From an uncultured virus (IMG/VR IMGVR_UViG_3300042691_045142) (taxonomy: Duplodnaviria; Heunggongvirae; Uroviricota; Caudoviricetes): a stretch of 20,000 bases of DNA. Positions 5,322-20,000 of the stretch are shown piece after piece. Where the stretch lies: the IMG/VR virus record IMGVR_UViG_3300042691_045142. One strand, 5' to 3'. The first letter of the stretch is position 1. Each line of letters opens with the position of its first letter. The notes under the pieces are model-generated. The model did no database searches. It saw only the letters and a program-made list of their open reading frames with translations, and had not been told where the DNA came from. The translations under genes and the position numbers were made by a program.

Positions 5322-5350
5322 ATTTTACGATAAATATCATTAGAGAGCAA
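5322..5350 (-). promoter_or_regulatory. Sigma70-like promoter for uvsE (likely near-leaderless mRNA)
   Basis: Minus strand TTGCTC (5350-5345) - 17 nt - TAAAAT (5327-5322). ATG is 9 nt further on, with no SD. Confidence 0.55.
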
Positions 5351-5381
5351 GTGCTTCTTTGGTGAATACCACCCTTTCAGG

Positions 5382-5387
5382 TAAATA
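5382..5387 (+). promoter_or_regulatory. Putative late promoter TAAATA
   Basis: TAAATA at 5382-5387 (second copy at 5331-5336) upstream of SD AAGGA and ATG 5411. Confidence 0.45.
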
Positions 5388-5410
5388 TTTGATAGATAAA
5401 GGAAAATATC

Positions 5411-5719
5411 ATGGCCATTTACACTCAATCAACAATGGATTTTGATGCATCATCAGCGATCCAATCACAGTATCAAGCAGGAGTTGGACCTATTGTTCAA
5501 CCTTATATCACTGCCGGGTTTACCGAACCGATTCCAACTTGGACACCGCCACTGCCAGACGGAACGTACCCAGCACCCAGCGGACAATATCAAAATCATC
5601 GTAGTTGGACTGACCTAACACAAGCTCAACAATGTGCAAATCAGGTCAATGCTTGGTTAGATAGTAATCCTGAGTGCAAAGCATTCAACACAACAGGACC
5701 AATAGTGGTGCAAGAGTAA
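5411..5719 (+). CDS. Hypothetical protein, tandem paralogue 1
   Basis: 102 aa, SD AAGGA. Shares 'IPTWTPPLPDGTYPAPSG...WTD...GP' with the next ORF. Confidence 0.75.
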   Translation: MAIYTQSTMDFDASSAIQSQYQAGVGPIVQPYITAGFTEPIPTWTPPLPDGTYPAPSGQYQNHRSWTDLTQAQQCANQVNAWLDSNPECKAFNTTGPIVVQE

Positions 5720-5721
5720 AC

Positions 5722-6036
5722 ATGCGAGTATTCACTAGAGCTACAAAAAACTTTGCTGTTAGCAGAGAACTGCTTGAAGAATATCATAAGGTCATTGGCG
5801 CCGAAATAAAACAAAGATATCTAGATTCGGGAGCTATTAAAAATAAAATACCAACGTGGGTTCCACCGTTACCTGGACAGTATCCACCTTCCTCTGGCAT
5901 CTTTGTGACCATACACGAATGGACCGATGAAGAGCAAGCTAGAAAAGAAGTGGCTGAAGTCACTGCAAAACTAGAGCAGTATCCGCATCTTCGCGCCTAT
6001 ACAAGTGGACCTGAAGTTTATATCGAAAACGATTAA
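5722..6036 (+). CDS. Hypothetical protein, tandem paralogue 2
   Basis: Start re-assigned to ATG 5722 (MRVFTRAT...), 2 nt after the previous stop. 104 aa with 'IPTWVPPLPGQYPPSSG...WTD...SGP'. Confidence 0.75.
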   Translation: MRVFTRATKNFAVSRELLEEYHKVIGAEIKQRYLDSGAIKNKIPTWVPPLPGQYPPSSGIFVTIHEWTDEEQARKEVAEVTAKLEQYPHLRAYTSGPEVYIEND

Positions 6037-6578
6037 GACAATAACTTAACAACGCTGTCAAAACTATCTTGTGTTAGATTTGACAGCGTTATTTTTTTGG
6101 TCACAGGATTAGGATGGTCTATCAACACCCATTGCGTTTCAGGATAGGTATTGAGGGTGGCGCGAAAAGCATTGTAGTAGTTTAGTTGTTTGTGATTTTT
6201 AAACTTGTCATCAAAGATTTTATCAGTGAGATCAAACCCCAACAATAATACCAGGTCATTTTGCTCAGCCACAAGGTGCATGGCTATTATTTCTTCTGGA
6301 TAGTCAAGAGCACCAGGAAAATCCCCTTCATAGAGATTTACCCGAGCAGGACGATTTAACTGTGCATAGTTTTTGTTGGCAGTATAAAAGTTGCACACGC
6401 TGTGGAATGCTCGTTGTATTAACTCTTGTGCCTTGTTCACGTCGTGACACAGTACATTATCTGTGTTCCAGGCACGCCATGTCTTCCAACTACCCCAGCT
6501 GGGTGCAATGTCTTTGAGCTGTTCGGGCGTGACGTGAGTGCTGGCAAACTGCTCGCTGATGATCCAACATACTCTCAT
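6033..6578 (-). CDS. Hypothetical protein, last gene of the minus-strand operon
   Basis: 181 aa, start abuts the stop of the upstream gene (6579). 'VLLLGFDL' resembles the LxGFD motif of MAF/DUF115-like sugar-transferase folds (weak). Confidence 0.7.
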   Translation of the reverse strand: MRVCWIISEQFASTHVTPEQLKDIAPSWGSWKTWRAWNTDNVLCHDVNKAQELIQRAFHSVCNFYTANKNYAQLNRPARVNLYEGDFPGALDYPEEIIAMHLVAEQNDLVLLLGFDLTDKIFDDKFKNHKQLNYYNAFRATLNTYPETQWVLIDHPNPVTKKITLSNLTQDSFDSVVKLLS

Positions 6579-7871
6579 TTATTTTGCCTTCAATGCTTGC
6601 CAACGGAACGCACCAAGACAGATCCAAGCAAACACACCTTCAGCAGTGGTATTGATGTTGATCACCAAATCGCCTTTGGTTCCACTGTAGCCCGGTGTTT
6701 CTGCAGACCATGAAATGGTATTGCGTCCAATGCGCAATCGTTGTATCGTGGTCATACCATCACCGTCGATCTCGATGTGATTCTGGCGGTTGGTACCCAG
6801 CACCAAGTTACCTTTGCGCCCTGTGCCAACAAATGCCGTGTTTTTGCTGAGTTTGCCCAGGCTCACGTTGACTTCTTCGTCCCATACAGACAGTGCAGAA
6901 TCAGGATCTTCTGTGTTGATGCCCACACGTCCGCGATTAACTGTCACGGTATCTCTTAGACTCACGTGACCATCTACTTGCAGACTTTCCAGTGCGCCCA
7001 CAGAAGTGATATTGGTGTTCTTGATACCGGGACTGAGAGCGTTGCCCGATACCAAAGGACGTCCGCCCACAGATACGTCTTCAATGTTGATACCACGTTT
7101 GATGGTTTTCAACATTGATTCTGTGAGCTCTTGGGCAAAATCATTTTTGATACGATCGTAGGTCACCGTGCCCACATGTTCGCTGAGATCTTGCCAGGCT
7201 TTGTTGTCCACAGCGATACGACCTTGCACACCAAGATCTCCCTTGACCAGCAAGTTACCTTTGAGTGTGGTATTGCGTTCTACCGACAGATCCTGGGTGA
7301 CTGTTTCACCTTCGACTACAATCACTCCATCCATCACAGTGAGCTGTGTGTTCGATGCTTGATCGTCAATACCATTGGATTGGAAGTTACGAGCAAGCTC
7401 TTGTGTGAGATGATCTCTGTGTTCCATGATCACTTGCCCTAACACAACGTTCATATCCAGCTCTCGAAGTCTAGCTCTCACACGATCTTCCATGCGCTGT
7501 GCTATGAGATTTTCAATCTTGACCACCCAAGCAGGATCTATGCTCAATGTATCAATGGTGTGTTCTACAAACTTTTCTACACCCTGATCCACGGCCTGGC
7601 GTATACGAGGTTGATCCACGTAGCTGGCCAGATCTGGCACAAATCCGTTGGCAAACATTTCACCAACTTTTTGTTCTACTGTGGTTACTAAATCAGGTAG
7701 GGTACCAATGTTGGCAAATCTAGCTGTGATGCGGTCCTGGACAAATCCAATGATCTGTTGCTCAAGATCCTCAATCCAGGCAGTCTGGCTCACTGCCTGT
7801 TGCACCTGTTGTGCTACAGCAGTTTTGATTTCTTGTTCTACCAGCTGAGCCAGTTGTTGTGCGTCAAGCAT
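6579..7871 (-). CDS. Probable virion structural/fibre-like protein (N-terminal helical region, C-terminal beta-rich region)
   Basis: 430 aa. 'LKGNLLVKGDLGVQG', 'ITSVGALESLQVDG' and 'GRVGINTEDPDSALSV' are repeat motifs typical of phage tail-fibre/beta-helical proteins. Confidence 0.55.
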   Translation of the reverse strand: MLDAQQLAQLVEQEIKTAVAQQVQQAVSQTAWIEDLEQQIIGFVQDRITARFANIGTLPDLVTTVEQKVGEMFANGFVPDLASYVDQPRIRQAVDQGVEKFVEHTIDTLSIDPAWVVKIENLIAQRMEDRVRARLRELDMNVVLGQVIMEHRDHLTQELARNFQSNGIDDQASNTQLTVMDGVIVVEGETVTQDLSVERNTTLKGNLLVKGDLGVQGRIAVDNKAWQDLSEHVGTVTYDRIKNDFAQELTESMLKTIKRGINIEDVSVGGRPLVSGNALSPGIKNTNITSVGALESLQVDGHVSLRDTVTVNRGRVGINTEDPDSALSVWDEEVNVSLGKLSKNTAFVGTGRKGNLVLGTNRQNHIEIDGDGMTTIQRLRIGRNTISWSAETPGYSGTKGDLVININTTAEGVFAWICLGAFRWQALKAK

Positions 7872-8784
7872 GTTCTCTCCATAGATCTAATGTGACACAG
7901 TGAAACCCACCGCCCAGGGTGCGACTGTGACTTAATTTGTGTGGTATCACTGTAAACCCACGAGTTTCTAGAGCATACCGCAGATCAGCTTGATCTGCGT
8001 CCATGATCACTGTAGTAGGATCAACCACTAACATATTTAACGCAATCCACTTTGAAGCGTAAGGGTACTGATAAAAGCCTTGTTCGACCACCTGATCTAC
8101 GTACAGAACATCCCAATCTTGGAATGCTCGGGGCAAGGTTTCACTGTTTACCCGTGCGCCATTGACGATGACCAGTCCTTCACGCAAAGGAACTATGGTT
8201 GAATCTATGTGTACTCCAGCGTAGAAGTTGCAAAGCTCAATGTTAATGTTGGGAAACTGGTTGCATAACCATTCATAGGCGGCTCGATTACCCGATGCAC
8301 TTTCTAAATACAACCAAGTGTCGCCCAGCCTACATACATTGGCCGCATCCAGCGTCATGCCTTCGTTTCTTGGCATATGGAGATAATGTTCAGCGGCATC
8401 AACAATGTCATAGTAGGCCGCCAACTCCATGTCTCTGCAGGGGTACATCATAGCGGGATCAACAATGGTAGTTCCTGCCACCAGCAATCTATCTCTAGGG
8501 CAATAGTTATACATACCACCCAACTGCACAAAATCCATTTCTTGCGGACGATGTACTTCTACTCCAAGATCAGTGAGTTTGCGAGCTAGATCATCCAGCT
8601 CTGCTTCGGCTTCGTTGATGATCCACCCAGGCACGGGTCCTGAGGGAACAGGAGTTTGTTTCCAAAGAGTTTTCTCACTTTCCTGTGCAAACACAGGGTC
8701 CGTGGTTGGCCAGTTGGCATGTCGAGCACTGCCTACCACAATGCTACGCAGTGGATCCCACTCGTTATAGGAATGGATCTTCAA
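7864..8784 (-). CDS. Amidinotransferase (glycine/inosamine-phosphate amidinotransferase family)
   Basis: 306 aa. 'SYNEWDPLRSIVVG', 'YNYCPRD', 'LDAANV', 'HIDSTIVPLREGL' and C-terminal 'SRTLGGGFHCVTLD' with the catalytic Cys, giving the Asp-His-Cys triad of AGAT/StrB1-type enzymes. Confidence 0.9.
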   Translation of the reverse strand: MKIHSYNEWDPLRSIVVGSARHANWPTTDPVFAQESEKTLWKQTPVPSGPVPGWIINEAEAELDDLARKLTDLGVEVHRPQEMDFVQLGGMYNYCPRDRLLVAGTTIVDPAMMYPCRDMELAAYYDIVDAAEHYLHMPRNEGMTLDAANVCRLGDTWLYLESASGNRAAYEWLCNQFPNINIELCNFYAGVHIDSTIVPLREGLVIVNGARVNSETLPRAFQDWDVLYVDQVVEQGFYQYPYASKWIALNMLVVDPTTVIMDADQADLRYALETRGFTVIPHKLSHSRTLGGGFHCVTLDLWREHA

Positions 8785-9298
8785 TGGGGACTCCTGTGAT
8801 TTGTAGTGTGTAACGATTGGTCATGCCGTTGTTGGCAGCTAGATGCTGGACATCATTGCGCCAGATATACGTGTCTCCGGCTATCCATTTTGTTATAGGG
8901 TTGCCATCTATTTCAAGATAGTGACCGCTTTGCCAATCTTCCAACATGACTATGGCACGGTATATAGAATCATCATCCACAATTTTGTAGAGTTTTTTAA
9001 ATCGAGCATAGGTGTCTGAGTGATTGGGCAACACAGTACCCGGAGGCATGCGATACACTGACCAGGAAAAATATTGCCAGGGAAAATGAAAACGGAAAGG
9101 TGCTATCCAAGGTGGTTCAGGATTACGCATGTCATACATATCTCCCGTGAATCTTGTTTGGGTATAGCCTAGACTGCGCCATAGCTCTAGACTTTCAGGA
9201 TCGTTGAAAGGTTCGTTGACATAGGGCAGACTCTGATGGCTGACCCACCAAGGTTCCACCCATTTCTTGACCCACTGTTTATTTTCTGGTATTACCAT
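8765..9298 (-). CDS. 2-oxoglutarate/Fe(II)-dependent oxygenase-like (cupin/DSBH) protein
   Basis: 177 aa. HxD 'LPNHSDTY', distal His 'QHLAAN', and 'RYTLQITG' with a candidate 2OG-binding Arg. 20-nt overlaps with both neighbours. Confidence 0.7.
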   Translation of the reverse strand: MVIPENKQWVKKWVEPWWVSHQSLPYVNEPFNDPESLELWRSLGYTQTRFTGDMYDMRNPEPPWIAPFRFHFPWQYFSWSVYRMPPGTVLPNHSDTYARFKKLYKIVDDDSIYRAIVMLEDWQSGHYLEIDGNPITKWIAGDTYIWRNDVQHLAANNGMTNRYTLQITGVPIEDPFL

Positions 9299-10511
9299 AG
9301 TGGATGATTTCGTAACCCTTCATGTCTGCCATTTTACGCCAAGGATCAACTATGACCGATCCTGCTTCGATAGGAGCATAGAAAGTATCGTCACGCACAT
9401 CACCTGTATAGCCATATGTGATTTGTCTATTGTGTGCCATCAACAACACACAAGCACCTTTGACTGATTGGATCACATTGGCATCGTCATCGGCCAAAGG
9501 ATCCAAATAACTCACAGAGAATCCAGCTTCCTTGATATAATATCCAATCAAAGTTGAGTAGCTACCGATGCAATAAGGCACATCAGGCTTGTAGGCTTTG
9601 CCATGTATGACGATGGGAAGATTCTTTTCTTTGGCTTTGTCTATCAAAAAGTGTGCAAGATTTTTTGCTTGTATTTCACGGGCATGCATGATGGTATCAA
9701 ACAGGTCGTATCCGATGTCATACTCTTCTGCCAGCCAACGCAGAGCGATGTTGTCTCGAGGATGACAAGCGCCAGCATCGCCCATGCCTGCTGTCATGTA
9801 CTTGGGTCCCATGATGCGCATGGTACTTTGTGCTAGAGCGTCTGTCACAACATCTACATTGATGTTGCCGATCTTCAGTGCAAAGTCCTGGATCATGTTG
9901 ACCAATCCAACCTTGGCAGAAATGAATGTGTTGTAGAAGATCTTGATGGCTTCGCACTCGTCCCAGGTGCCTGTGACATAGCGTGGATTGTTTTTCATCA
10001 GCGGACGATATAAATCAATGAGATCGCGCATTTCACTTGGATCACCGGTTTCCGTGCCAATCATGACCATTTCTGGATTGGCCATGTCCCACTTCACAGA
10101 ACCCATGGCAATGAGATATGGGTTGTACAAAAACTGATGGCGCTTGTCTAACAATGTAGCAAAATGTCTGCGAGTTGTGCCAGGCAGTACTGTAGAGATC
10201 AGCACCACACGTTTAGATTCTTTGGCATAGGCATTGACATACTCAATGGCCTGTTTCACGGCATCATGCCCAAAATCTCGTGGTTCCATGTGTGAGCTTG
10301 GAACTGATCCATCATAACCCTCTGAGTGCGGAGTGGGCACTGCGATAAACAACCAGTCACTGTTGTCTACGACTTCTTCTACATTGGTGCAAACTTTGAC
10401 TGTGTCACTGTAGCGTGGATATATATCATAACCGTAAACTGTGTAACGTTCTGCAAAGACTTCGGCGCAGTCCAGACCCAGTTTACCTAACCCAATAAAA
10501 CCTATATTCAT
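9279..10511 (-). CDS. UDP-glucose/GDP-mannose dehydrogenase family protein
   Basis: Start set at ATG 10511 (MNIGFIGLGKLG; SD GGAGG at 10517-10521). Rossmann GxGxxG, 'FIAVPTP', 'STVLPGT', 'IKIFYNTFIS', catalytic 'GACHPRD', 'GKAYKP'. Confidence 0.92.
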   Translation of the reverse strand: MNIGFIGLGKLGLDCAEVFAERYTVYGYDIYPRYSDTVKVCTNVEEVVDNSDWLFIAVPTPHSEGYDGSVPSSHMEPRDFGHDAVKQAIEYVNAYAKESKRVVLISTVLPGTTRRHFATLLDKRHQFLYNPYLIAMGSVKWDMANPEMVMIGTETGDPSEMRDLIDLYRPLMKNNPRYVTGTWDECEAIKIFYNTFISAKVGLVNMIQDFALKIGNINVDVVTDALAQSTMRIMGPKYMTAGMGDAGACHPRDNIALRWLAEEYDIGYDLFDTIMHAREIQAKNLAHFLIDKAKEKNLPIVIHGKAYKPDVPYCIGSYSTLIGYYIKEAGFSVSYLDPLADDDANVIQSVKGACVLLMAHNRQITYGYTGDVRDDTFYAPIEAGSVIVDPWRKMADMKGYEIIHYGNTRK

Positions 10512-10523
10512 TGTATCCTCCAT

Positions 10524-11783
10524 ATGTCGGTTCCTACAGATAATTTATATGATTTCATCCACCAGGTCACAGAAAAGCAGTACTGGCTCATGCGATTCTA
10601 TCCCTGGGGTAGCCGACGTCTGCTAGACTGTGGGGATTATCAATCCACAGTAGCGCATCTCAACGGGCCCAATGGCATACCCAAACATCAGAGAACAGTG
10701 GATCAGATCTTGCCTGAACTATTGCCTGCATTGCCATATGAAAAACAAGTTAGAAACTTCCAGCCTGTATTATTTTGTCATGATCAAGAACCCCTGAACT
10801 TTGATTTATATCAAGACTCTGATCCAGGAATGGCTGAATTTTTCAATAGCCAAAGCCACGACCCGACCTTTCCACATCCAGACTTCAATCTAAGAAACAC
10901 CATAGTATGGTCTTGGCAAAAAGCCTGGACACTGTTACACAGCGAAGTCAACAGTGCAGAGCTGGTCAAGTACGAAAACACCGGGCGATATGTTGGAGCA
11001 TACTGGTGGAGCCATGGTATGATTGCTAGAGACTGGTATAGGTATGCTGAGAATGATAGATCATTTTGTTACACTGACCCAAATAAGTTATTTTTAGTGT
11101 ATGCACGAGATTTTACCGGTACTAGGGTGTACAGAAAAGAGTTCTTGTCTAAACTCGCAGACATAGAACACAGTTGTCAAATAGGATCCATTGGTAGTCA
11201 TTCAGTGACATCAAACAGCAGTGCTGTGTATTGCAGTGACGATTTCAATGCCACGGGAATAAGTGTTGTGTTAGAGACTCTGTTCGATGATGTTAGGATA
11301 CATTTAACTGAAAAGATACTCAGGCCCATCGCATGTGGGCATCCTTTTATTTTGGCTGCGGGCCCAGGAAGTTTGGCGTTGCTCAGGCGCTACGGTTTTG
11401 AAACATTCAGCCCTTGGATCAACGAAAGCTACGATGACATCACTGACTCTGCCCTCAGAATGGAGGCCATTATTAACGAAATGAAAAGACTGGCCAATCT
11501 CAGCAGACAACAGCAACACTGGATTTTAGAATCCTGCAGGGCCGTGGCTCAAAGAAATAAAAAGAGATTCTTTCACAATGATTTCTTCAATCACATTGTG
11601 AAAGAACTTATAGACAACGTTGGTCTGGCTTGGGAAAAACATCAGGGCCAGTTAAGCCCTGATTTTTATTGGCAAACTCTGCGCTGGCGTCGTAAAAACA
11701 AACCTGAATATTTTACGCCTGAACGCAGAGACGATCACCGATTGTTGTTACCTCTAGTGCGTCAACTACGTAGATCTACTTAA
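10524..11783 (+). CDS. Putative glycosyltransferase-like protein (GT10-like TEK motif)
   Basis: 419 aa. 'SVVLETLF...HLTEKILRPIACGHPFI...GFETF' resembles the E(N/T)...TEK...P donor-binding motif of GT10 fucosyltransferases. Adjacent to a nucleotide-sugar dehydrogenase. Confidence 0.5.
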   Translation: MSVPTDNLYDFIHQVTEKQYWLMRFYPWGSRRLLDCGDYQSTVAHLNGPNGIPKHQRTVDQILPELLPALPYEKQVRNFQPVLFCHDQEPLNFDLYQDSDPGMAEFFNSQSHDPTFPHPDFNLRNTIVWSWQKAWTLLHSEVNSAELVKYENTGRYVGAYWWSHGMIARDWYRYAENDRSFCYTDPNKLFLVYARDFTGTRVYRKEFLSKLADIEHSCQIGSIGSHSVTSNSSAVYCSDDFNATGISVVLETLFDDVRIHLTEKILRPIACGHPFILAAGPGSLALLRRYGFETFSPWINESYDDITDSALRMEAIINEMKRLANLSRQQQHWILESCRAVAQRNKKRFFHNDFFNHIVKELIDNVGLAWEKHQGQLSPDFYWQTLRWRRKNKPEYFTPERRDDHRLLLPLVRQLRRST

Positions 11784-12099
11784 ACAGTATCATGGCCATC
11801 AGCACTGCTTGGATGATAAATCCAGCACCAATGGTCACGATATTCAGTGTATCCTTGAGTACCACTGCACGACCAAACAACAACACCAGGCCGCCCCACA
11901 TCAGCATGATGATATCCACCGAAGGGGTACGATCGCTGAGTCCTGTGAGTATGGCCAACAGCGTGGGCATTGTGGCGCCATGGATCAAGATCACTGCCAA
12001 CCAACCCAGGGTTTCTGCCGAGATGGTGTGCAGTTGTGTGGCTAGATAGTTGCTGAATCCCGATCTGATATTTCCGATGAACTGAAAGAACTTGCTCAT
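11776..12099 (-). CDS. Small multi-pass membrane protein coupled to the cell-wall hydrolase
   Basis: 107 aa with about 3 hydrophobic segments. ATGA overlap with the hydrolase stop at 12096-12099. Confidence 0.75.
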   Translation of the reverse strand: MSKFFQFIGNIRSGFSNYLATQLHTISAETLGWLAVILIHGATMPTLLAILTGLSDRTPSVDIIMLMWGGLVLLFGRAVVLKDTLNIVTIGAGFIIQAVLMAMILFK

Positions 12100-12701
12100 A
12101 CTTTACCTTCTTTCTTTTTGTAGAATATATGCCGACCAAACTGCCCCAAATACTGCATGTTGGGCCATCCGGGTTTCACATAGTCAGCGTGAAAATACAG
12201 TGCTTCTTTGAGACTGGGCAGTCGGAATCCTTCCAACAGGACCTTCTTGGCCACTTCCATGCTTTCATCCCATAGTGCAGGATGTACAGGCCGGATCTTG
12301 TGTGTGGGTTCGCAATACCATGAAAACTGGCACACGACTTTTTCATAGATTACGTTCTTCTGATATACCACTCCGCAGACGTCTTTGCCGAAACGTCCGT
12401 CATTGACACGGTTCATGGTTACCTGGGCCACACCCACTTTGCCTTCAAAAGGCTCAGAGGCGGCTTCCCAGTAGATGTTGCGGGCCAAGCATTCTAGTTG
12501 CTTGGAACGATCCGCGGTGGACACGAAGCCTTGGCGCCATGAGGCTGCTTCGTTGTCAGATGCTAGTGCATCCAGACGCAAATTTGTGACTGTGATCAAG
12601 ATCGATGCTACGATCATTAGGCCGATCACACGGGGCAGACTTACTAAAAGTTTGACCATGCCAACTTGGTGCGTTCTTGACTTTGATACTGTCGCTGTCA
12701 T
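12096..12701 (-). CDS. SleB/CwlJ-like cell wall hydrolase (Hydrolase_2) with N-terminal membrane anchor
   Basis: Start set at ATG 12701 (MTATVSK; SD GGAGG upstream). 'CLARNIYWEAASE', 'VAQVTMNRV', 'VCGVVYQ', 'CQFSW', 'ALYFHADYVKPGW', 'GRHIFY' are Hydrolase_2 hallmarks. Confidence 0.9.
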   Translation of the reverse strand: MTATVSKSRTHQVGMVKLLVSLPRVIGLMIVASILITVTNLRLDALASDNEAASWRQGFVSTADRSKQLECLARNIYWEAASEPFEGKVGVAQVTMNRVNDGRFGKDVCGVVYQKNVIYEKVVCQFSWYCEPTHKIRPVHPALWDESMEVAKKVLLEGFRLPSLKEALYFHADYVKPGWPNMQYLGQFGRHIFYKKKEGKV

Positions 12702-12834
12702 AACTTCCTCCTTGTTTACAGGTTTGTTTTTACCGTAGTAATATGTACAACTCCTACGACCACGGATAACTGCGCACATTTCCAAAAGAGCTATATTTAA
12801 CACAATCGCTCCAAAAGAAACAAACACAAGCTAT

Positions 12835-12863
12835 ATTTTAGCTGATTTTCTGATTGATGTCAA
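12835..12863 (-). promoter_or_regulatory. Near-consensus sigma70 promoter upstream of the cell-wall hydrolase
   Basis: Minus strand TTGACA (12863-12858) - 17 nt - TAAAAT (12840-12835). An additional minus-strand TAAATA at 12794-12799. Confidence 0.65.
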
Positions 12864-12903
12864 AATATTTTTCACCGTTCATCGAGAGCCACTGACATTT
12901 TGG

Positions 12904-12909
12904 TAAATA
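12904..12909 (+). promoter_or_regulatory. Putative late promoter TAAATA
   Basis: TAAATA upstream of SD AAGGAG and ATG 12947. Confidence 0.45.
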
Positions 12910-12946
12910 CTCCAAAGAATCCCACAAGAGGATCAAAGGAGCTAGG

Positions 12947-13225
12947 ATGGACTTTTTCAAACTCGTGGCCGAGGTCGGTTTCCCGATCGCGGCGGCATGC
13001 GCTGGTGGTTACTTCATTTTCCTCACACTGAAATTCATACTCGCTGGAGTGATGAGCTCGGTGCAGGGACTTTCAGGCATAATCACTGCTCTAGATAATC
13101 GTGTAAAAACAATGAACCATGATGTCATACGCATCGACACCGTGGTATCCAATGCATTGGGTCTCAAACCCGACACCAATCGTATTGCTAGAGCAGATGG
13201 CAAAAATGATGCCCGACGTGACTAA
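12947..13225 (+). CDS. Small membrane-anchored coiled-coil protein, paralogue A
   Basis: 92 aa, SD AAGGAG. 'MDFFKLVAEVGFPIAAACAGGYFIF' TM segment then 'ALDNRVKTMNHDVIRID'. Confidence 0.8.
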   Translation: MDFFKLVAEVGFPIAAACAGGYFIFLTLKFILAGVMSSVQGLSGIITALDNRVKTMNHDVIRIDTVVSNALGLKPDTNRIARADGKNDARRD

Positions 13226-13430
13226 AGATCCCCGTACCTGGACTGCTCAAGAACGCACCCATGTTTTTTGCAACAGGAACGAGTGGACCCAAATGTGCAT
13301 AGATTATCACGATCAAGAAAAGAATATTAGGAAGTTAGTTGATTTTGTAACCAAAAAGGAAGAAAAATGCTCTACGTGGACTACTCGTGGGATCTGTCAG
13401 AAAATCGCATCATTCTGGACGAAGAATTAG
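13206..13430 (+). CDS. Possible hypothetical protein (start uncertain: ATG 13206/13209 or GTG 13218)
   Basis: Fills the gap 13225-13367 on the same strand but overlaps the next gene by 64 nt. Confidence 0.35.
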   Translation: MMPDVTKDPRTWTAQERTHVFCNRNEWTQMCIDYHDQEKNIRKLVDFVTKKEEKCSTWTTRGICQKIASFWTKN

Positions 13431-13642
13431 ATATTGATCGGCTGGGTTGGAAAGCCGGTGATCTTTTCAAGGTCACTAATATAAATGGTCAAGCACAGTT
13501 GGTCAAGGTTGACCCGTTGGAAAAGTTTGTTCGCGGGCATGGCCCTGCCATGATGGGTATCGTCAACGAAGAAGATGATACTGTGCATTTTGTAAATGTG
13601 CCTACACCGCAGGATACGTTTGATATTTTAAAAAGGAAATAA
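13367..13642 (+). CDS. Hypothetical small protein
   Basis: 91 aa, SD AAGGA upstream. 'LGWKAGDLFKV' is reminiscent of AbrB/SpoVT-like swapped hairpins (weak). Confidence 0.7.
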   Translation: MLYVDYSWDLSENRIILDEELDIDRLGWKAGDLFKVTNINGQAQLVKVDPLEKFVRGHGPAMMGIVNEEDDTVHFVNVPTPQDTFDILKRK

Positions 13643-13643
13643 C

Positions 13644-13793
13644 ATGGGAAAATGGGAAAAATGGTATGAAGCGCAACCTGCACATATCAAGGCATGGTAC
13701 GATCAACCCAGAGCTATTTGGTATGATAGCGATATGTTGAAAGCCGTTGTGTTTGGAGTTTTGATCGGAGTGTTAGTTGGGCTTGCTGTTTGA
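13644..13793 (+). CDS. 49-aa membrane peptide (not in ORF track)
   Basis: MGKWEKWYEAQPAHIKAWYDQPRAIWYDSDMLKAVVFGVLIGVLVGLAV*. SD AAGGA. Starts 1 nt after the previous stop. C-terminal TM helix. Confidence 0.65.
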   Translation: MGKWEKWYEAQPAHIKAWYDQPRAIWYDSDMLKAVVFGVLIGVLVGLAV

Positions 13794-13800
13794 AGCATTC

Positions 13801-13923
13801 ATGATTTTTTACTTGTTGGAAACGCTGGTATTGATATCAGTGGCTGTTTGGTATTATCACGAACCTAAAACGGAACAAAAGAAAATACATGATCCTTGGG
13901 GATTTTGGAAAGAGGAAAAATAA
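13801..13923 (+). CDS. 40-aa membrane peptide (not in ORF track)
   Basis: MIFYLLETLVLISVAVWYYHEPKTEQKKIHDPWGFWKEEK*. Stop abuts the ATG at 13924. Confidence 0.55.
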   Translation: MIFYLLETLVLISVAVWYYHEPKTEQKKIHDPWGFWKEEK

Positions 13924-14274
13924 ATGGACTTAGTAGCACTGATTAACAAATACGGATTTCCTATAGTGGCTGCCGGCGGTATGGGATATATGATTTACTA
14001 TGTGTGGACCTGGGCCACCAAAGAAGTCAAACCTATCTTGAAAGAAGCCAACACTGTGCTGATTGCCTTGATCGATCGTATACGCATGTTAGACAATGAC
14101 TTGATCCGCTTGAATCAAAAAGTTGATGTGGTACTGCACTTACGTGGCAAGATCATCGAAGGTGAACGTGTGATAGAACAACAGAAAACCGAGCGCGAAG
14201 CTGATGCCAAGTTCCGCGAAGCACTCAAAGCTGACGAAGACGATAAAAAGACTGCCTCCGCTGGCGAGGGCTAA
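13924..14274 (+). CDS. Small membrane-anchored coiled-coil protein, paralogue B
   Basis: 116 aa, SD GAGGA. 'MDLVALINKYGFPIVAAGGMGYMIYY' and 'ALIDRIRMLDNDLIRLN' align with 12947..13225. Confidence 0.8.
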   Translation: MDLVALINKYGFPIVAAGGMGYMIYYVWTWATKEVKPILKEANTVLIALIDRIRMLDNDLIRLNQKVDVVLHLRGKIIEGERVIEQQKTEREADAKFREALKADEDDKKTASAGEG

Positions 14275-16341
14275 TCACTTGCTGGTTGCTCGATAGATGC
14301 CATCCCAGTCCAAGGGCAAGCCAGCAGACTTCATTTCCACACAGCGTTCTTGCCACATTTCATAGTAATGATCCATGGCGCCGTTGAAACGACCCATTAG
14401 GTCATTGCAAAACTTCACTGCCTGATCAAACTTCTGCTGTCGATAAAGATTCAGCATCGCATCATGCATCTGTGTGTCTGCTGATGAAACACGTAACTCA
14501 TCTCTGTGTCCTAACACTGTATAAATGTTCACACCTTCTTTTTTGCCTTTTACTGCGATACAGTCTAGCTCAAGCACAAGGTATTCGTCTTTTACATATT
14601 CGGCAGTTTTTGCCCCCACCACGATCTTGACACCGTACGGTTTACTCTGGCCTTCCAGTCTGGAAGCCAAGTTGACGCCATCACCAAGACAAGTATAGTC
14701 AAAACGCTGATCACTTCCCATGTTACCCACCACAACGGTGTCAGTATTGATGCCAAGGCCCATACCAAAAGGTGGTACGCCTTCTGCTTGAACTTCTTTA
14801 TTGAACTCATCCAAACTCCCTAACATTTCTAAACCTGTTTTTACAGCATCCTTGGCATGCTGAGTATTGTCCAAGGGTGCGTTCCAAAATGCCATCTGTG
14901 CATCTCCAATGTACTTGTCTAACGTGCCTTTGTTTTCCAAGATCTTTTTAGTCATGGCTGTCATATAACGATTCATTATTTTTGTTAGCCCTTGCACGTC
15001 TTTACCATAGTGTTCGCTGATACTTGTAAAGCCACGCACATCTGTGAACATGATTGACAGTTCACGACTGTCACCGCCCAACACCAACAGATCGGGATTG
15101 CGTTGTAACTGTGCCACAAGATCTGGGCTGAGATAAGTTCCAAACTGTTTCTTGATCTGTTGCTTCTGCAGGAACTCACTTATAAACTTAACGCCGTAAG
15201 TATGCAGAGCCACGAGAACAAGACCAGCTGTGCTTGCCGTCGCGTCTGCCAAGATTCGCCACTCACTATAAGCCAGGCCACTGGCAACAACAGGGGCAAT
15301 GACCCCAACAATAGATATAAGAATACCTGCATAAGTCCACCTCGACATTCCAATGATAATCAGTCCCATGACCGCTATGAATATGATTTCAACTCCATCT
15401 GCATAGTCAGGACGTTCGATCGTGACGCCGTTGAACATGGTAGCTATCACAGCGGCTTGTACTTCGTGTGGCCATACTGAACCACGAGGAGTGGGCACAG
15501 GATTGCCTAGCCCCCCGGCGGCCACGCCCACAATGACATCAGCACCACCAAAGTCCTTGGGCAAGTTTATAGCCGACACGCTTTGACTGCGCTGGCTCCA
15601 GTCGATCCATATGCGACCCAGACTGTCTGTGGCGATGGGACCAAATGCAGGTATACGCATCTTTTCTACGCCCAGTTCCGTGAGCTTGATCTGTGTGGTA
15701 CTGTCTCCTGCGCTTACACGCAATACTTCCATGGCCAAGCTGGGATACACTCGACCATCCACTGCCACGACCAAAGGCATCCTACGGTTGACACCGTCCA
15801 CTTCAGGCAGTGTGGCTACGATGCCCACGCCTTTAGCTCTCTTTTCCAGCATGTCAATGTTGGCTATGATGCCAGGGTACTGTACTATCTGATCGGAGAA
15901 CTCTGCTCCTATCACAGCAGTGCCCGGCTGTTTTGGTGTATTTTTCATACGATCCGCTGGCAAGTTAGGCAGTATGACATCAAGTTCGTTGAGTGTGGCT
16001 GCCAAGGATCCATCGCCACCGGATCGATCGCGTTCGGGCATCATGACATTGAATATGACCAGGCCTGCATTTCTTTTGTACAATTCCTCAATGAGGTTAG
16101 CGTACACCCGTCGATCAAAAGGCCACTGCCCGTGTTTGGCGATGGTATCTTCGTCGATGTTTACTGTGTAGATATCGGTGGGTGTAGGTGGTTGGGCAGT
16201 GATCAGGGTATCAAAGTAGCGTAGGCGCACACTTTCTACAAAGACAGGATCGGCAATTCTTATACTTAAAATAAGTGCCAATGTTATAAGTGCAGTCCAA
16301 GGACTTGTCAATAGTTTTTTGAGAGTGGATTTTTTCAACAT
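14275..16341 (-). CDS. CHASE2-domain class III adenylate cyclase
   Basis: 688 aa. N-terminal TM, CHASE2 motifs ('VNIDEDTIAKHGQWPFDR', 'DGVNRRMPL', 'YPSLAME'), three TMs, then cyclase 'IMFTDVRGFTSISE', 'GTLDKYIGDAQMAFWNAP', 'DYTCLGDGVNLASRLEG'. The Lys/Asp specificity pair indicates ATP as substrate. Confidence 0.93.
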   Translation of the reverse strand: MLKKSTLKKLLTSPWTALITLALILSIRIADPVFVESVRLRYFDTLITAQPPTPTDIYTVNIDEDTIAKHGQWPFDRRVYANLIEELYKRNAGLVIFNVMMPERDRSGGDGSLAATLNELDVILPNLPADRMKNTPKQPGTAVIGAEFSDQIVQYPGIIANIDMLEKRAKGVGIVATLPEVDGVNRRMPLVVAVDGRVYPSLAMEVLRVSAGDSTTQIKLTELGVEKMRIPAFGPIATDSLGRIWIDWSQRSQSVSAINLPKDFGGADVIVGVAAGGLGNPVPTPRGSVWPHEVQAAVIATMFNGVTIERPDYADGVEIIFIAVMGLIIIGMSRWTYAGILISIVGVIAPVVASGLAYSEWRILADATASTAGLVLVALHTYGVKFISEFLQKQQIKKQFGTYLSPDLVAQLQRNPDLLVLGGDSRELSIMFTDVRGFTSISEHYGKDVQGLTKIMNRYMTAMTKKILENKGTLDKYIGDAQMAFWNAPLDNTQHAKDAVKTGLEMLGSLDEFNKEVQAEGVPPFGMGLGINTDTVVVGNMGSDQRFDYTCLGDGVNLASRLEGQSKPYGVKIVVGAKTAEYVKDEYLVLELDCIAVKGKKEGVNIYTVLGHRDELRVSSADTQMHDAMLNLYRQQKFDQAVKFCNDLMGRFNGAMDHYYEMWQERCVEMKSAGLPLDWDGIYRATSK

Positions 16342-16345
16342 TATG

Positions 16346-16351
16346 TATTTA
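16346..16351 (-). promoter_or_regulatory. Putative late promoter TAAATA directly ahead of the cyclase start
   Basis: Minus strand TAAGTAAATACATAATG: TAAATA ends 4 nt before the ATG. No SD. Confidence 0.4.
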
Positions 16352-16358
16352 CTTAACG

Positions 16359-17459
16359 TTATTTTTGTACAATGGTTATAGTAGTGGATCCACTGCGATT
16401 CACAGGTTGTGTGATGGCCACACCATCTTGTGTGATATTGAGGACCATGTTGTGTTCTCGGTCAACAATGACTCTAGCGATATGTCCCACAGATCTATCC
16501 AGCACCAACTTGCTGTCATCATCAGCATCAATGTAATATTTTAGTTCAGTGGCTGCATTGTATCCAGGTAACATCTGATTCTGCATGGCAAACTGTTCTT
16601 GGCTCATAGCCAACTGTGCGTTGCTGATGTCCAGCATGTTGACCAAGAACTCTCCGTCCAAAAAGTTTTGATCCAAGGCTGTGAACTTTTTGAGTTCATC
16701 CTCATCCAAGGCATTGTATTTTAAAAAATCCTGATTAAGGAAATTTACGTCCAAGGCAGTCTTGACCGAGTTTTGCAGTTCTTCATCTTGAAACTGTGGT
16801 GGTGGCGACACTATCAACAAGTTATTGATGTTGGTCTGATCTATGTTGATGATTATTGGTGCGCTGGGCGGTGTAGAGAGCGATTGTACCAGCGTGGCTT
16901 GGTAGGCATGTTCCAACAGTACTGAACCTGCTTCGTTTGATACTTCGATGGCACCTGTGACACATCCTTTGTTGTCACAGCTGGGCAACAGCATCACGAG
17001 ACTGCGACCCAGCTCGTCCACGGTCATTGAAAAGTCTGTACCGCGCACAGCAATGCTGGCTGTGGGAGTTTTTACTGCTACCTGCTGTGGGTTGTTTTTG
17101 GCTATCTGCCCCGATGCATATCTAGCAGTGCCCAGTGCCATTTTAAGCGCCAGCTTGCCTGTGCCTCGTCGAGGATCATAAACAAAATCATCTATTATCA
17201 GTTTTGACTGTTCAGTGATCTGAACCGTGGTCTTGTCTTCAAACTCCAGCTTGGCTCGAGCACGAGCCGTGACAATGGTGTCGTTGGATTCTATAGATGC
17301 ATTGACCTGACTACTCAATGACTTTTTATTTCTAACTATCTCAGTAGGACCAGTCTGTTCAGAAACTCGCCCTACTGCTGCCTCAGTTGGTCTGATTGAT
17401 AGTAATATTGTTGTTATCGCCAGTACTATTAACAGTAACGCTTTTAGCCGTTGTGCCAC
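16359..17459 (-). CDS. Secreted FecR-domain protein
   Basis: 366 aa. GTG start with SD AGGAG 9 nt upstream, signal peptide ending 'TEA|AVG', FecR motifs 'DTIVTARARAKLEFEDKTTVQITEQSKL' and 'VKTPTASIAVRGTDFSM'. Confidence 0.85.
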   Translation of the reverse strand: MAQRLKALLLIVLAITTILLSIRPTEAAVGRVSEQTGPTEIVRNKKSLSSQVNASIESNDTIVTARARAKLEFEDKTTVQITEQSKLIIDDFVYDPRRGTGKLALKMALGTARYASGQIAKNNPQQVAVKTPTASIAVRGTDFSMTVDELGRSLVMLLPSCDNKGCVTGAIEVSNEAGSVLLEHAYQATLVQSLSTPPSAPIIINIDQTNINNLLIVSPPPQFQDEELQNSVKTALDVNFLNQDFLKYNALDEDELKKFTALDQNFLDGEFLVNMLDISNAQLAMSQEQFAMQNQMLPGYNAATELKYYIDADDDSKLVLDRSVGHIARVIVDREHNMVLNITQDGVAITQPVNRSGSTTITIVQK

Positions 17460-18015
17460 TTTGAGTGACTCCTATGGTGTTAGTATTGCCGGTAACAGTG
17501 ATATTAGCACTCGTGGCACCAGTATTGGTACTGGTGTGTGTCACGTTGTTAGTATCTCCTGTGATAGTGATCTCACTGGTGTGATTGGCACCGCCGCCCA
17601 AGTTTTGAGTCACTATGTTTGAATCTCCTGTGATCGCTTGCTTGATAAAACTAGCATTACAGCCAGCTGATGCAGTGGTTCCGCAGTCGATGGTTGACAA
17701 GTTATTACTGCCCAACACATCGACCACGACATCCGTGGCCAACCCATTGACCACAAGATCCAACTCGTTGGCACTGCCAATCTGATCTATAGTCACTGTG
17801 TTTGACCCTGACCCAATGTACGCTGGACTCAAGGCTGTACCTATTCGATTGCTAGAACCATCCTGTGTGATAGCTATGGTAGAGTTATCGCCTACCTGTT
17901 CCATATAAACTTCGTTGGCCACCGCCATGGTGGTACTGCAAAACATGGCCGCTAACCAGAAGTTGGTAAGTATTTTTCTCGACAACTTACCAGCGCCTGT
18001 CATACTTGTTTTCAT
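17383..18015 (-). CDS. Curlin-repeat (CsgA/CsgB-like) secreted protein
   Basis: Probable start ATG 18015 (or 18003). Signal peptide ending 'AVA|NEV'. Gly/Asn/Thr/Ser-rich beta-arc repeats 'EQVGDNS', 'TQDGSSN', 'DQIGSAN', 'TGDSN', 'TGDTNN', 'TGNTN', 'TGDNNNITINQ'. Directly downstream of csgG. Confidence 0.72.
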   Translation of the reverse strand: MKTSMTGAGKLSRKILTNFWLAAMFCSTTMAVANEVYMEQVGDNSTIAITQDGSSNRIGTALSPAYIGSGSNTVTIDQIGSANELDLVVNGLATDVVVDVLGSNNLSTIDCGTTASAGCNASFIKQAITGDSNIVTQNLGGGANHTSEITITGDTNNVTHTSTNTGATSANITVTGNTNTIGVTQSGTTAKSVTVNSTGDNNNITINQTN

Positions 18016-18044
18016 TTTATTTTTTCCTGGGTACTTTATCATTT

Positions 18045-19151
18045 TTATTGGTGTACCTTCATGAACCGTTTTGCTACCCAACCTTCTTTGCCATCCACCC
18101 GGATGTTGTAGAAGTCTTTATCTTCTGCTAGTATTTCAACAGTGGCACCTGGACGAAGATTTGCTATTTTTTCGCTTTGATGTTCTCTGCTGACTCTAAC
18201 ATTACTCCACTCAACGACGGTAGCTCGTCGTGTTTGTGTTTTAGATACTGGTACATCAGCTGGTGCGACCGCTGGGCTGGCCTCGGGGGCTGATGTGGTC
18301 TTTGTGGTGTTTTCTTGAACCAACTCATTTTTTCGTTCCTCCTTTACAGCAGGAGGGGCCATCGATATTTCAGGCTTGTGGGCCCGAAATCTCCATAGTC
18401 CCTTTTTTTCTCCGGCCATGATCATTTCATACACACCTTGTTCAATGGCCACTCGCACAGCATAAGTGGTGGGCTCATTCAAGGCCGCACCATTCTCTAA
18501 CTCAAGGCTTCTAGTGCCTTGATCAAAGAACTTGAACACTCCCACGTTGTGGGCTGTGGAGTATATGGTCTTGCTCACAGCAGTGGTCAGTAACACTTCT
18601 CCGGAGTTGATACTAACCAATCTCAAACTGATTATGACTTCATCTACTCTATACTGCTGGCTGGCGCCTATGCCCAACCAACGAGCACCGTTGCCGCCTG
18701 ACCGTATGTTCGAGTCATACCCAATGATGCCACCTTCGATCATGATTCCGGCCACTGTGAGTGGTTTGAGTGGTCTGGCATCTTTGCCTTCGTATACTTC
18801 ACGTTGGTTACGTATGAGCTGTCGCTCTTTGATGAGGTTATCTAACCCCACACGCTCTACTACCCGGAACCAACTTTTAGAATCTTGCAAACTTTTGATC
18901 AAGAAACTTTCTGCACCTTGTGTGACTGCTTTGCTAAACAGGGCCAACTTGTCGTTGGATTTGTTCTGTCCGGTGAGATCACGGAATCCATACACAGCAA
19001 TGGTCATGGGAGGCCCATCTAGATCTGGTAGCTTGGCTATGAGATCCTGTTTGGCTGTGACAGCCACAGGTTCTTCACGCAAGGCTTCCATGGTCAAACT
19101 GGCACAGCCTGTGAGAGTAGTCGCGAGCATGATCATCAATAGTTTTTTCAT
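18045..19151 (-). CDS. csgG: Curli secretion channel lipoprotein CsgG with C-terminal SH3-like domain
   Basis: 368 aa. Lipobox 'LTGC', CsgG motifs 'IAVYGFRDLTGQ', 'SKAVTQGA', 'WFRVVERVGLDNLIKERQLIR', 'EGGIIGYDSN', 'LRLVSINSGEVL'. Pro/Ala/Thr linker then 'NVRVS...IANLRPGATVEIL...YNIRVDGKEGWV'. Confidence 0.92.
   Translation of the reverse strand: MKKLLMIMLATTLTGCASLTMEALREEPVAVTAKQDLIAKLPDLDGPPMTIAVYGFRDLTGQNKSNDKLALFSKAVTQGAESFLIKSLQDSKSWFRVVERVGLDNLIKERQLIRNQREVYEGKDARPLKPLTVAGIMIEGGIIGYDSNIRSGGNGARWLGIGASQQYRVDEVIISLRLVSINSGEVLLTTAVSKTIYSTAHNVGVFKFFDQGTRSLELENGAALNEPTTYAVRVAIEQGVYEMIMAGEKKGLWRFRAHKPEISMAPPAVKEERKNELVQENTTKTTSAPEASPAVAPADVPVSKTQTRRATVVEWSNVRVSREHQSEKIANLRPGATVEILAEDKDFYNIRVDGKEGWVAKRFMKVHQ
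18164..18328 (-). CDS. Candidate 54-aa out-of-frame ORF nested in the csgG 3' region
   Basis: Perfect SD AAGGAGG (18344-18338), 9 nt spacer, ATG 18328. MSWFKKTPQRPHQPPRPAQRSHQLMYQYLKHKHDELPSLSGVMLESAENIKAKK*. Confidence 0.35.
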   Translation of the reverse strand: MSWFKKTPQRPHQPPRPAQRSHQLMYQYLKHKHDELPSLSGVMLESAENIKAKK

Positions 19152-19600
19152 CAGAAACTAAAGCTCGCTATAGGTACTGTAATCTCAGTGCGATTACCGT
19201 TGGTTTCAATGATGCTCAGCGTGACATCTGTGCCGGTCTTGACCCAACTGATATTGGTGCCTTGGAAATCCATGGCACCCGAAGTGGCACCACTTTCGGT
19301 AAACATGGCATCAGCCAGTTGTTTGGAAAGTTGTGCGTATATCCTTGACTCTACATTGACCAAGAACTTGGCCAAGTTGGTATTTTTAGCATCTCTCTCG
19401 GCTTTGTCTTGAGCGGCCCGTTGTGCATCGGCTATGGTTTTACGACGTTGTGATTCCAGTTGTTCAATGGTAAGGACGTGAGAACTGTAGCCGTTGCCTG
19501 GTATAAAGGCCGGACTTTGGAATTGATGTACCAGCTCACCACTTATTGCGATGCTGGTCATAAAAAGATTTATAGTTATGGCGACCAGCCACTTGTTCAT
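19151..19600 (-). CDS. csgF: Curli assembly protein CsgF-like
   Basis: 149 aa. Signal peptide, then 'ELVHQFQSPAFIPGNG' matching the CsgF N-terminal FxFxxPxF-G pore-binding peptide, 'FLVNVESRIYAQLS', and C-terminal 'NGNRTEITVP'. 1-nt overlap with the csgG start. Confidence 0.8.
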   Translation of the reverse strand: MNKWLVAITINLFMTSIAISGELVHQFQSPAFIPGNGYSSHVLTIEQLESQRRKTIADAQRAAQDKAERDAKNTNLAKFLVNVESRIYAQLSKQLADAMFTESGATSGAMDFQGTNISWVKTGTDVTLSIIETNGNRTEITVPIASFSF

Positions 19601-19626
19601 AGTCTGCTCCTAGACTTCGACTAGTT

Positions 19627-19632
19627 TATTTA
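19627..19632 (-). promoter_or_regulatory. Putative late promoter TAAATA for the csgF operon
   Basis: Minus strand TAAATA about 27 nt upstream of ATG 19600. SD GGAG at 19610-19607. Confidence 0.45.
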
Positions 19633-19672
19633 CTAGAAAGCAGACAAAGTTTAGCTAGGGTTTTAATGCAGG

Positions 19673-19915
19673 CTATTTGATAGGGAGATTTTTCAACAGT
19701 TCTATGCACTCGTTGAATGCGATCTGTGCGTCTAATTCTCCAGCACTGAGTTGGATGTTTTCCAACCGTTGTAGATCGACTAGGAGTTCTTGATACTCGG
19801 CATCTGACATATCACCACGTGCTAGTGCGTCTCGATAACTCACTGCCAGTCTCACACGATTTCCAAGTTCGCCTTCACTGTTGCAAAAATTATTAACTAC
19901 ATCTATAATGCTCAT
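19673..19915 (-). CDS. Hypothetical acidic helical protein
   Basis: 80 aa, SD AAGGAG upstream, ATGA overlap with the preceding partial ORF. Confidence 0.7.
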   Translation of the reverse strand: MSIIDVVNNFCNSEGELGNRVRLAVSYRDALARGDMSDAEYQELLVDLQRLENIQLSAGELDAQIAFNECIELLKNLPIK

Positions 19916-20000
19916 GGTCTAGGTCTCCTTCCACTGACGTCAAGCATGCGAACAGTGGCTTCATGTATTATTTTTATCTTGGCCCGGCAATAAAACTGAC
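19912..20000 (-). CDS. 3' end of a hypothetical protein (partial)
   Basis: Open frame from the window edge ...QFYCRAKIKIIHEATVRMLDVSGRRPRP* ending in an ATGA overlap at 19912-19915. Confidence 0.55.
   Translation of the reverse strand, partial: QFYCRAKIKIIHEATVRMLDVSGRRPRP

Follow-up and report, generated by a model that had tools for sequence, protein, structure and literature searches.

Curli secretion genes have been described in phages before. In podovirus and myovirus pelagiphages, Wittmers et al. (2022, mSystems; PMC9599517) reported a viral type VIII secretion system (T8SS) made up of CsgF, CsgG, CsgA/B, FecR, a second CsgA/B and an adenylate cyclase; according to the same paper, bacterial T8SS operons lack FecR and the cyclase, csgC, csgD and csgE are missing from viral and alphaproteobacterial modules, podovirus versions have a 'histidine kinase' gene before csgF, the viral curli genes are expressed in metatranscriptomes, and each of the 65 ocean stations analysed yielded viral curli proteins. 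A curli cluster was also found in pelagimyophages (Zaragoza-Solas et al., 2020; PMC7029224), and a lysis-timing pore was proposed by Buchholz et al. (2022; PMC9004378); the main text of these two papers contains neither 'cyclase' nor 'FecR'. Here we analyze a cassette of this kind in a 20,000-nucleotide (nt) stretch of DNA from an uncultured virus (IMG/VR record IMGVR_UViG_3300042691_045142), which we call the window. Five genes, encoding CsgF, CsgG, a curlin-repeat protein, a FecR-fold protein and a CHASE2 class III adenylate cyclase, occupy positions 19600..14275 of its minus strand (Table 1), and we are close to certain that they are the known viral curli-FecR-cyclase cassette. What is new comes from a survey of relatives: in the phages, FecR is constantly linked to csgG and co-inherited with the csg genes, the cyclase stays near but is shuffled, and the two halves of the cassette are separate in the sampled bacteria, where the closest CHASE2 cyclases often lie beside FecR-tagged RTX/cadherin adhesins.

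The order of the five genes is that of the viral T8SS (PMC9599517), again in a T4-like myovirus. Among GenBank phages, a protein search found the cyclase-FecR set only in Pelagibacter phage HTVC008M (KC465899) and Methylophilales phage Melnitz (MZ577097), both with the gene order csgF-csgG-curlin-FecR-second curlin-cyclase; their proteins share 29-51% identity with those of the window, and the matches are at the protein level only (megablast of the 5.3-kb stretch against GenBank phages gave none). Unlike these two phages, the window lacks the second curlin gene, and only 17 nt separate FecR from the cyclase; upstream, csgF and csgG have one base in common, and 77 nt are shared by the curlin and FecR genes. 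A small gene, orf116, whose family precedes csgF in Melnitz and HTVC008M, lies past the cyclase on the other strand in the window. The closest large relative of the carrier is 344 kb long, versus 141-147 kb for HTVC008M and Melnitz, and the metagenomes in which the window's stretch occurs are labelled fungus, freshwater or lake, not marine. Unlike the published viral cassette, CsgG of the window has a C-terminal SH3 domain. These additions (a compact five-gene form, CsgG-SH3, a jumbo non-marine carrier and a displaced orf116) are minor, and the window alone adds little beyond one further carrier of a published cassette. A sequence-only reading of this DNA had described five co-oriented genes in this order, and the coordinates and Pfam matches agree with it; the TAAATA motifs it saw ahead of csgF and the cyclase are there as GTAAATA; and csgE, csgC and csgD, which it did not recognize, are likewise absent from a Pfam scan of 27 window open reading frames (ORFs). 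The novelty it implied has to be given up, since Wittmers et al. had published the cassette, with FecR and the cyclase, in 2022 (PMC9599517).

In all, at least 584-589 viral relatives were found. We followed the linkage of the genes in two sets: the best 80 of at least 589 viral relatives of the cyclase (cyclase-anchored) and 79 viral loci around csgG (csgG-anchored), with denominators given by the loci that have enough flank; because they have contigs in common and all their loci belong to a single related phage group, the sets are not independent samples. In the csgG-anchored set, all 76 loci with 600 nt or more of flank on that side have CsgF upstream, FecR comes after csgG in all 58 loci with 3 kb or more downstream, curlin is present in 57 of 58, and 41 of 43 have the cyclase within 10 kb. 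Seen from the cyclase, FecR is in the flank of 67/80 loci and all four partners in 57/80; among the 36 loci with 8 kb on either side, these numbers are 35 and 32. Eleven of the 13 cyclase-anchored loci without a tblastn match to FecR have at most 2.1 kb of upstream flank, and in two of those eleven (L014 and L019; L numbers are our locus handles) FecR or curlin was found by profile search. The conserved neighborhood on which the sequence-only reading had staked its proposal is thus found in the FecR, CsgF and cyclase counts alike. Other window genes are scarce in the cyclase-anchored loci, with UDP-glucose dehydrogenase in 9/80 and UvdE in 6/80. To compare histories, we used 88 cassettes, i.e., the window and 87 non-identical loci with all five genes. 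The distance matrices of CsgF, CsgG, curlin and FecR intercorrelate with r 0.75-0.83 (FecR versus the other three, 0.79-0.83), and FecR is therefore an integral, co-inherited member of the csg block.

The two halves of the cassette were also sought in bacteria. No CsgF, CsgG or curlin was found by phage-derived profiles within 10 kb of the 80 closest bacterial CHASE2 cyclases (0/80; mostly Alphaproteobacteria, 29-50% identity to the phage cyclase), and a FecR protein was found within 10 kb in 23 of these 80 loci. As a positive control, the same profiles find strong CsgG matches (E 1e-84 to 1e-93) in 8 of 401 sampled alphaproteobacterial genomes. All eight csgG loci have adjoining CsgF and curlin genes, as the phage cassette does, but, unlike in the cassette, neither FecR nor a CHASE2 cyclase occurs within 10 kb of any of them (0/8). 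Thus, the csg half and the FecR-CHASE2 half are separate modules in the bacteria sampled, and were therefore joined in the phage lineage. The pair itself, an exported FecR-domain protein encoded next to a CHASE2 receptor, has good bacterial precedent, as the sequence-only reading had stated: the CHASE2 adenylate cyclase gene cyaD1 of Sinorhizobium meliloti lies beside the FecR-domain gene SMc02177, which is dispensable for plant-signal perception (PMC5498481), and an operon in Burkholderia/Pseudomonas encodes a LysM-FecR protein and a CHASE2 histidine kinase (PMC5192318). CHASE2 ligands were described in 2016 as unknown (PMC5192318).

In contrast to the phage protein, the bacterial FecR partners are often large. 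We scanned 18 of the 23 (ORF starts were set by the longest frame, so that lengths are approximate): seven contain cadherin, Big_9, RTX or VWA adhesin modules, one NIDO, three TPR, and seven FecR only. Type I secretion parts (HlyD, ABC exporter, TolC-like OEP) are present in 6 of the 23 loci, all six with adhesin-type FecR fusions. This subset ties the FecR-CHASE2 pair to outer-membrane adhesin export and gives independent, though circumstantial, support to a coupling of export or adhesion with cAMP, from a small sample of 23 loci. Three layouts stand out among them. In a marine alphaproteobacterial single-cell genome (L088), a fusion of a cyclic nucleotide monophosphate (cNMP)-binding domain to HlyD (8267-9982) is encoded directly 5' of the CHASE2 cyclase (9989-12346), in a locus that also has an ABC exporter and a FecR-RTX protein; judged by its genes, it looks like a type I secretion circuit controlled by cyclic AMP (cAMP). 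In Bradyrhizobium (L086), a BTLCP (LapG-family) cysteine protease (4012-4803) is next to a FecR-cadherin-RTX protein and a CHASE2 cyclase, a layout that recalls LapA/LapG adhesin release, by analogy with the cyclase replacing LapD. A third locus (L095) has a cNMP-gated channel near the FecR-CHASE2 cyclase pair. Our literature searches found no paper naming CHASE2 together with CsgG and four naming it together with FecR; of the papers listed on adenylate cyclases and RTX adhesins, none names CHASE2.

The csg proteins of the window are well matched to their families. CsgF matches PF10614 over profile positions 3-132 of 132 (E 7.9e-14, 52.4 bits, cut-off 25.8) and phrog_35372 (E 1.2e-49), and its hydrophobic N-terminal segment (residues 5-24) fits an exported protein; against solved CsgF structures there was no sequence match at E<=1. 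CsgG matches PF03783 (E 3.3e-53, 180.5 bits, cut-off 20.8) and aligns with E. coli CsgG (3x2r) across residues 1-256 (E 1.3e-47), with the lipobox Cys16 aligned. The curli channel of this family is described as a nonamer with 36 strands, with CsgF bound 1:1. In a phmmer alignment to the E. coli protein, whose constriction residues we take to be Y51, N55 and F56, F56 is kept, whereas Y51 lines up with N and N55 with L. Behind a linker, the C-terminus carries an SH3_3 domain at residues 317-364 (nt 18060-18203, E 4e-10). Such an extension is present in 3 of the 11 long viral CsgG proteins examined (L004, L029 and L080), and absent from the other 8/11 and from 8/8 alphaproteobacterial CsgG; peptidoglycan anchoring would be our guess for the domain.

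By its repeats and its predicted fold, the third protein is a CsgA/B-like secreted beta-solenoid subunit. It matches PF07012 (E 2.1e-7, 31.2 bits, cut-off 20.7), and its start is probably ATG 18015, because a signal-peptide-like N-terminus comes after that ATG. The AlphaFold model (predicted local distance difference test, pLDDT, 86.5; predicted template modeling score 0.79) is a regular strand-turn-strand solenoid with 14 paired strands. With a wide structural aligner, the best match of the model is Pontibacter CsgA (8c50_A; Z 17.1, 167 residues), which beats unrelated beta-helices by 2-3 Z units only; the E. coli CsgA fibril (8enq) gives Z 9.7, and Foldseek returned nothing at E<=0.001. At the enterobacterial equivalog level, the scores stay far below the NCBIfam cut-offs for CsgA (26.7 bits, cut-off 160) and CsgB (20.4 bits, cut-off 165).

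The FecR protein matches PF04773 (E 2.2e-11, 44.5 bits, cut-off 24) and phrog_37870 (E 5e-102). Its model (pLDDT 80.8) has a signal-like helix at residues 1-29, a beta domain at 30-191, a disordered linker at about 205-275, and, in the C-terminal half, a helix at 271-296 followed by a small beta domain at 306-365. Residues 57-214 match the C-terminal cell-surface signaling domain of PupR (6ovm_R; Z 15.2, root-mean-square deviation (rmsd) 2.6, 134 residues); the C-terminal beta domain (303-365) has generic Ig-like matches only (Z about 4). A cytoplasmic N-terminal anti-sigma domain was not found: the protein opens with the hydrophobic signal-like helix, which leaves no room for such a domain, and we therefore consider it an exported FecR-fold protein and no FecR-type regulator. 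Residues 26-120 of the model also match RIN, the retention domain of an RTX adhesin (5ix9; Z 7.4, rmsd 2.1, 73 of 76 residues), a lead and no demonstration, given a small beta domain and a middling Z. In LapA/MpIBP-type RTX adhesins, an N-terminal periplasmic retention domain holds the adhesin in the type I secretion pore (PMC5550230). Like these, the phage cassette would link a folded beta domain in the periplasm to an adhesin that passes across the outer membrane through its export channel; unlike them, it encodes FecR as a polypeptide of its own, with CsgG instead of a TolC-like protein as the channel. A complex prediction of FecR 28-366 with the CHASE2 periplasmic region 37-315, run with no controls, scored 0.00, which is no answer and counts neither for nor against binding.

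The last protein is, from its domains and residues, an inner-membrane CHASE2 receptor adenylate cyclase with intact catalytic residues. CHASE2 (PF05226) covers residues 20-328 (nt 15358-16284, E 3.2e-36, 125.6 bits) and Guanylate_cyc residues 427-608 (nt 14518-15063, E 2e-20, 73.6 bits), with a C-terminal tail of about 80 amino acids (aa) and a phrog_35576 match of 787 bits; CHASE2 receptors usually consist of an N-terminal transmembrane segment, some 300 aa outside the cytoplasm, a transmembrane block and a cytoplasmic output domain, with which the hydrophobic segments at 16-36 and 312-359 agree. The solved domains nearest to the cyclase domain are adenylate cyclases (6fht, and 3r5g CyaB). 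Six residues (D434, K476, D480, R561, K598 and K600) do not vary in any of 22 relatives, among which position 550 is T, S or D and position 557 is N in 19; the window cyclase has D434, D480, K476, T550, N557 and R561. We take these to be the two metal-binding Asp, the adenine-specifying Lys with Thr/Asp, and the transition-state Asn and Arg. In five related phage records or genomes, some of which may be fragments, a search for a cNMP-binding domain (PF00027, the only receptor family sought) found none.

On this basis we tentatively favor, at a little less than an even chance, that the csg half and the FecR-CHASE2 half act as one signaling device. The phage supplies the infected cell with the CsgG lipoprotein channel and CsgF cap, through which the curlin subunit would exit to form a surface fiber or adhesin layer. 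The FecR-fold protein, a constant and co-inherited member of the csg block, would be the periplasmic coupler that reports the state of the export/adhesin apparatus to CHASE2. The cyclase would then set cAMP in the infected cell, and, since no phage cNMP-binding protein was found, this output would act on host receptors. A wider form of the idea, which we think unlikely as a general rule, is that the FecR fold generally couples an outer-membrane adhesin export channel to a CHASE2 receptor, and that phages grafted the pair onto a curli exporter. Under that generalization, Alphaproteobacteria would carry FecR at the N-terminus of type I-exported RTX/cadherin adhesins, the cNMP-binding membrane-fusion protein (one case) would close a cAMP feedback loop, and an infected cell would turn the state of fiber export, anchoring or adhesion into cAMP, which would time late events.

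Several observations count against a single device. The cyclase distances correlate with those of the four other proteins at r 0.28-0.41 only (FecR 0.38, CsgG 0.32, CsgF 0.28), and the window's nearest relatives by cyclase differ from the set shared by the other four proteins; the cyclase has therefore been swapped by recombination, yet kept close, and such a discordant history is unexpected in a tightly matched receptor pair. The FecR-cyclase spacing ranges from -10 to 5698 nt (60 loci same-strand, 6 convergent, 1 divergent), and the gap holds cargo genes in relatives: RimK-type ATP-grasp, metallophosphoesterase, glycosyltransferases, a PstS-like binding protein and a nuclease. The halves are occasionally apart: in one locus (L042) neither csg genes nor FecR lie within 8 kb of the cyclase, and in another (L226) csg and FecR lack a cyclase within 10 kb; a further locus (L225) has a cyclase fragment only. 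All linked loci belong to one related phage group, so part of the co-occurrence is common ancestry. The candidate GTAAATA before the cyclase may be a promoter of its own, and no phage cAMP receptor was found among the sequences searched. In PMC9599517, PMC7029224 and PMC9004378, moreover, the functions given for the cassette are hypotheses only. Of the one trans-envelope machine that the sequence-only reading proposed, with superinfection, cell contact or pore occupancy as its conjectured input, then, the constant place of FecR in the csg block, the nearness of the cyclase and the bacterial adhesin-export parallel speak for it, whereas the cyclase history, the intervening cargo and the separated halves do not. 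As for the cargo, the metallophosphoesterase of relatives was considered as a cAMP phosphodiesterase and rejected, having weak LpxH-type matches far below the cut-offs and none of CpdA type.

The discordant cyclase, its variable spacing and orientation, the cargo and the separated halves in L042 and L226 would all be expected if a hypervariable island held two independent functions, namely a csgF-csgG-curlin-FecR coat, in which FecR serves the secretion block only, and a separate cyclase that resets host cAMP on some other periplasmic cue. The coat would serve aggregation ('sibling capture') or superinfection shielding, ideas that are in print (PMC7029224 and PMC9599517). Genes in the FecR-cyclase gap of relatives point the same way, toward adhesive display: among 52 gap ORFs, 16 are second curlin genes, 7 have PA14, and 4 have both (Table 1). 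In these fusions a PA14 (at times GLEYA) lectin-like domain is joined to curlin repeats; from the domains, such a protein would have a head that binds carbohydrate and an anchor of amyloid type. Nevertheless, the cyclase keeps its place within 10 kb of csgG while other island genes vary, FecR-CHASE2 adjacency recurs in unrelated bacteria, and in bacterial relatives CHASE2 cyclases are coupled with type I secretion and with secreted adhesins that carry a FecR tag; in addition, Buchholz et al. (PMC9004378) observed that Melnitz-infected cells did not clump. We regard independent functions as rather doubtful, if still a serious contender.

A further alternative, which seems improbable to us, gives CsgG-CsgF no fiber to export and makes it a gated pore for lysis timing, envelope permeabilization or uptake of large molecules, with curlin and FecR taking the part of CsgE as plug or gate, and cAMP acting as the timer. 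The lack of csgE in the window and in viral modules (PMC9599517) fits this, as do published proposals on lysis timing and uptake (PMC7029224, PMC9004378), but alphaproteobacterial csg loci, here and in PMC9599517, also lack csgE and yet have curlin genes. A SleB-type hydrolase gene lies 1.4 kb away, the candidate GTAAATA motifs are compatible with late expression, and the constriction loop of CsgG appears altered relative to E. coli in the alignment. CsgG sits in the outer membrane, however, and alone is unable to depolarize the inner membrane; and a CsgA-type beta-solenoid in 57/58 loci, with a second one (often with PA14) frequent, is likelier to be a substrate than a plug. The probability that remains beyond a single device, independent functions and a pore lies with readings not listed here.

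It is scarcely conceivable that this is a csg operon of a bacterial chromosome, or host DNA that was misbinned, instead of phage DNA: the window has no hallmark phage structural gene and encodes a host-like TctC-type binding protein, UvdE and UDP-glucose dehydrogenase, but it is 100% identical to a 19.5-kb IMG/VR record, is syntenic with a Gp23-bearing viral contig, has strong PHROG matches for 10 of 22 ORFs (very strong for four of the five cassette proteins), and combines halves that are found together in none of the alphaproteobacterial csg or bacterial CHASE2 cyclase loci above. The syntenic contig (L004, 343,632 bp, CheckV completeness 99%) aligns with window positions 3761-20000 at 76-84% nucleotide identity and encodes a T4 Gp23 major capsid protein (E 3e-100), which bears out the phage-like context noted in the sequence-only reading and supplies, in this relative, one of the marker genes by which it proposed to confirm a viral origin. 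The contig has about 3 kb more than the window between FecR and the cyclase, where a 664-aa ORF (L004:4997-6991) has no Pfam or NCBIfam match; window positions 1-3760 have no DNA match in it. The stretch occurs in 24 sequencing runs of DNA, whose labels are fungus, freshwater or lake metagenomes; no RNA run was listed among them. The window, with a G+C content of 39-51% and no hits in tRNA and Rfam scans, is DNA of a jumbo T4-like phage from a non-marine water or soil-type community.

Table 1. Features of the cassette and of the rest of the window, with fusion genes of relatives. Coordinates are those of the 20,000-nt window, except where a locus handle precedes them.
Feature	Position	Strand	Description
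csgF	19600..19151	minus	149 aa; Pfam PF10614
csgG	19151..18045	minus	368 aa; Pfam PF03783 and SH3_3
Curlin-repeat protein	18015..17383 (open frame from 18081)	minus	210 aa from ATG 18015; Pfam PF07012
FecR-fold protein	17459..16359	minus	366 aa; Pfam PF04773
CHASE2 class III adenylate cyclase	16341..14275	minus	688 aa; Pfam CHASE2 and Guanylate_cyc
orf116	13924..14274	plus	small conserved protein, convergent with cyclase; phrog_18771
GTAAATA	19633..19627	minus	late-promoter-like candidate, 26 nt before csgF ATG
GTAAATA	16352..16346	minus	late-promoter-like candidate, 4 nt before cyclase ATG
TctC-type solute-binding protein	3-791		runs off window start
PaaA/PaaC-like protein	846-1577		weak match
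Two ORFs	1651-3559		no function assigned
UvdE-type UV endonuclease	4284-5312		phage-family match; also in some relatives' islands
UDP-glucose dehydrogenase-like	9279-10523		phage-family match; also in some relatives' islands
SleB-type cell-wall hydrolase	12096-12827		phage-family (endolysin PHROG) match
ORF 5' of csgF	19673-19915		no Pfam, NCBIfam or PHROG match
PA14-curlin fusions in relatives	L003:7604-8929, L047:6829-8004, L051:4711-5937, L065:5224-6420		not in window

The GTAAATA motif occurs four times in the window (5381 and 12903 on the plus strand, 16346 and 19627 on the minus strand), each copy at most 45 nt 5' of an ORF start on the matching strand. Their number is not beyond chance, with at least four copies in 28 of 200 shuffles, and the full T4 late consensus TATAAATA was not found in the window; from its placement, GTAAATA may be a late-type promoter core distinct from T4 TATAAATA. 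The orf116 protein matches phrog_18771 with E 7.7e-31 and has a homologue in 62 of the 80 cyclase-anchored loci, just 5' of csgF or past the cyclase; two copies lie next to the csg-less cyclase of L042. It has no Pfam family and no kinase domain in Pfam. Its family may be the gene named 'HK' by Wittmers et al., and its membership in the system is uncertain.

The cassette is abundant in aquatic phages, as the number of related viral stretches shows, and gives the infected cell an envelope structure foreign to its known hosts. If FecR-CHASE2 does read the export/adhesin half, this would be the first input signal for CHASE2, and the phage would install its own surface-to-cAMP sensing pathway in the cell that it infects.

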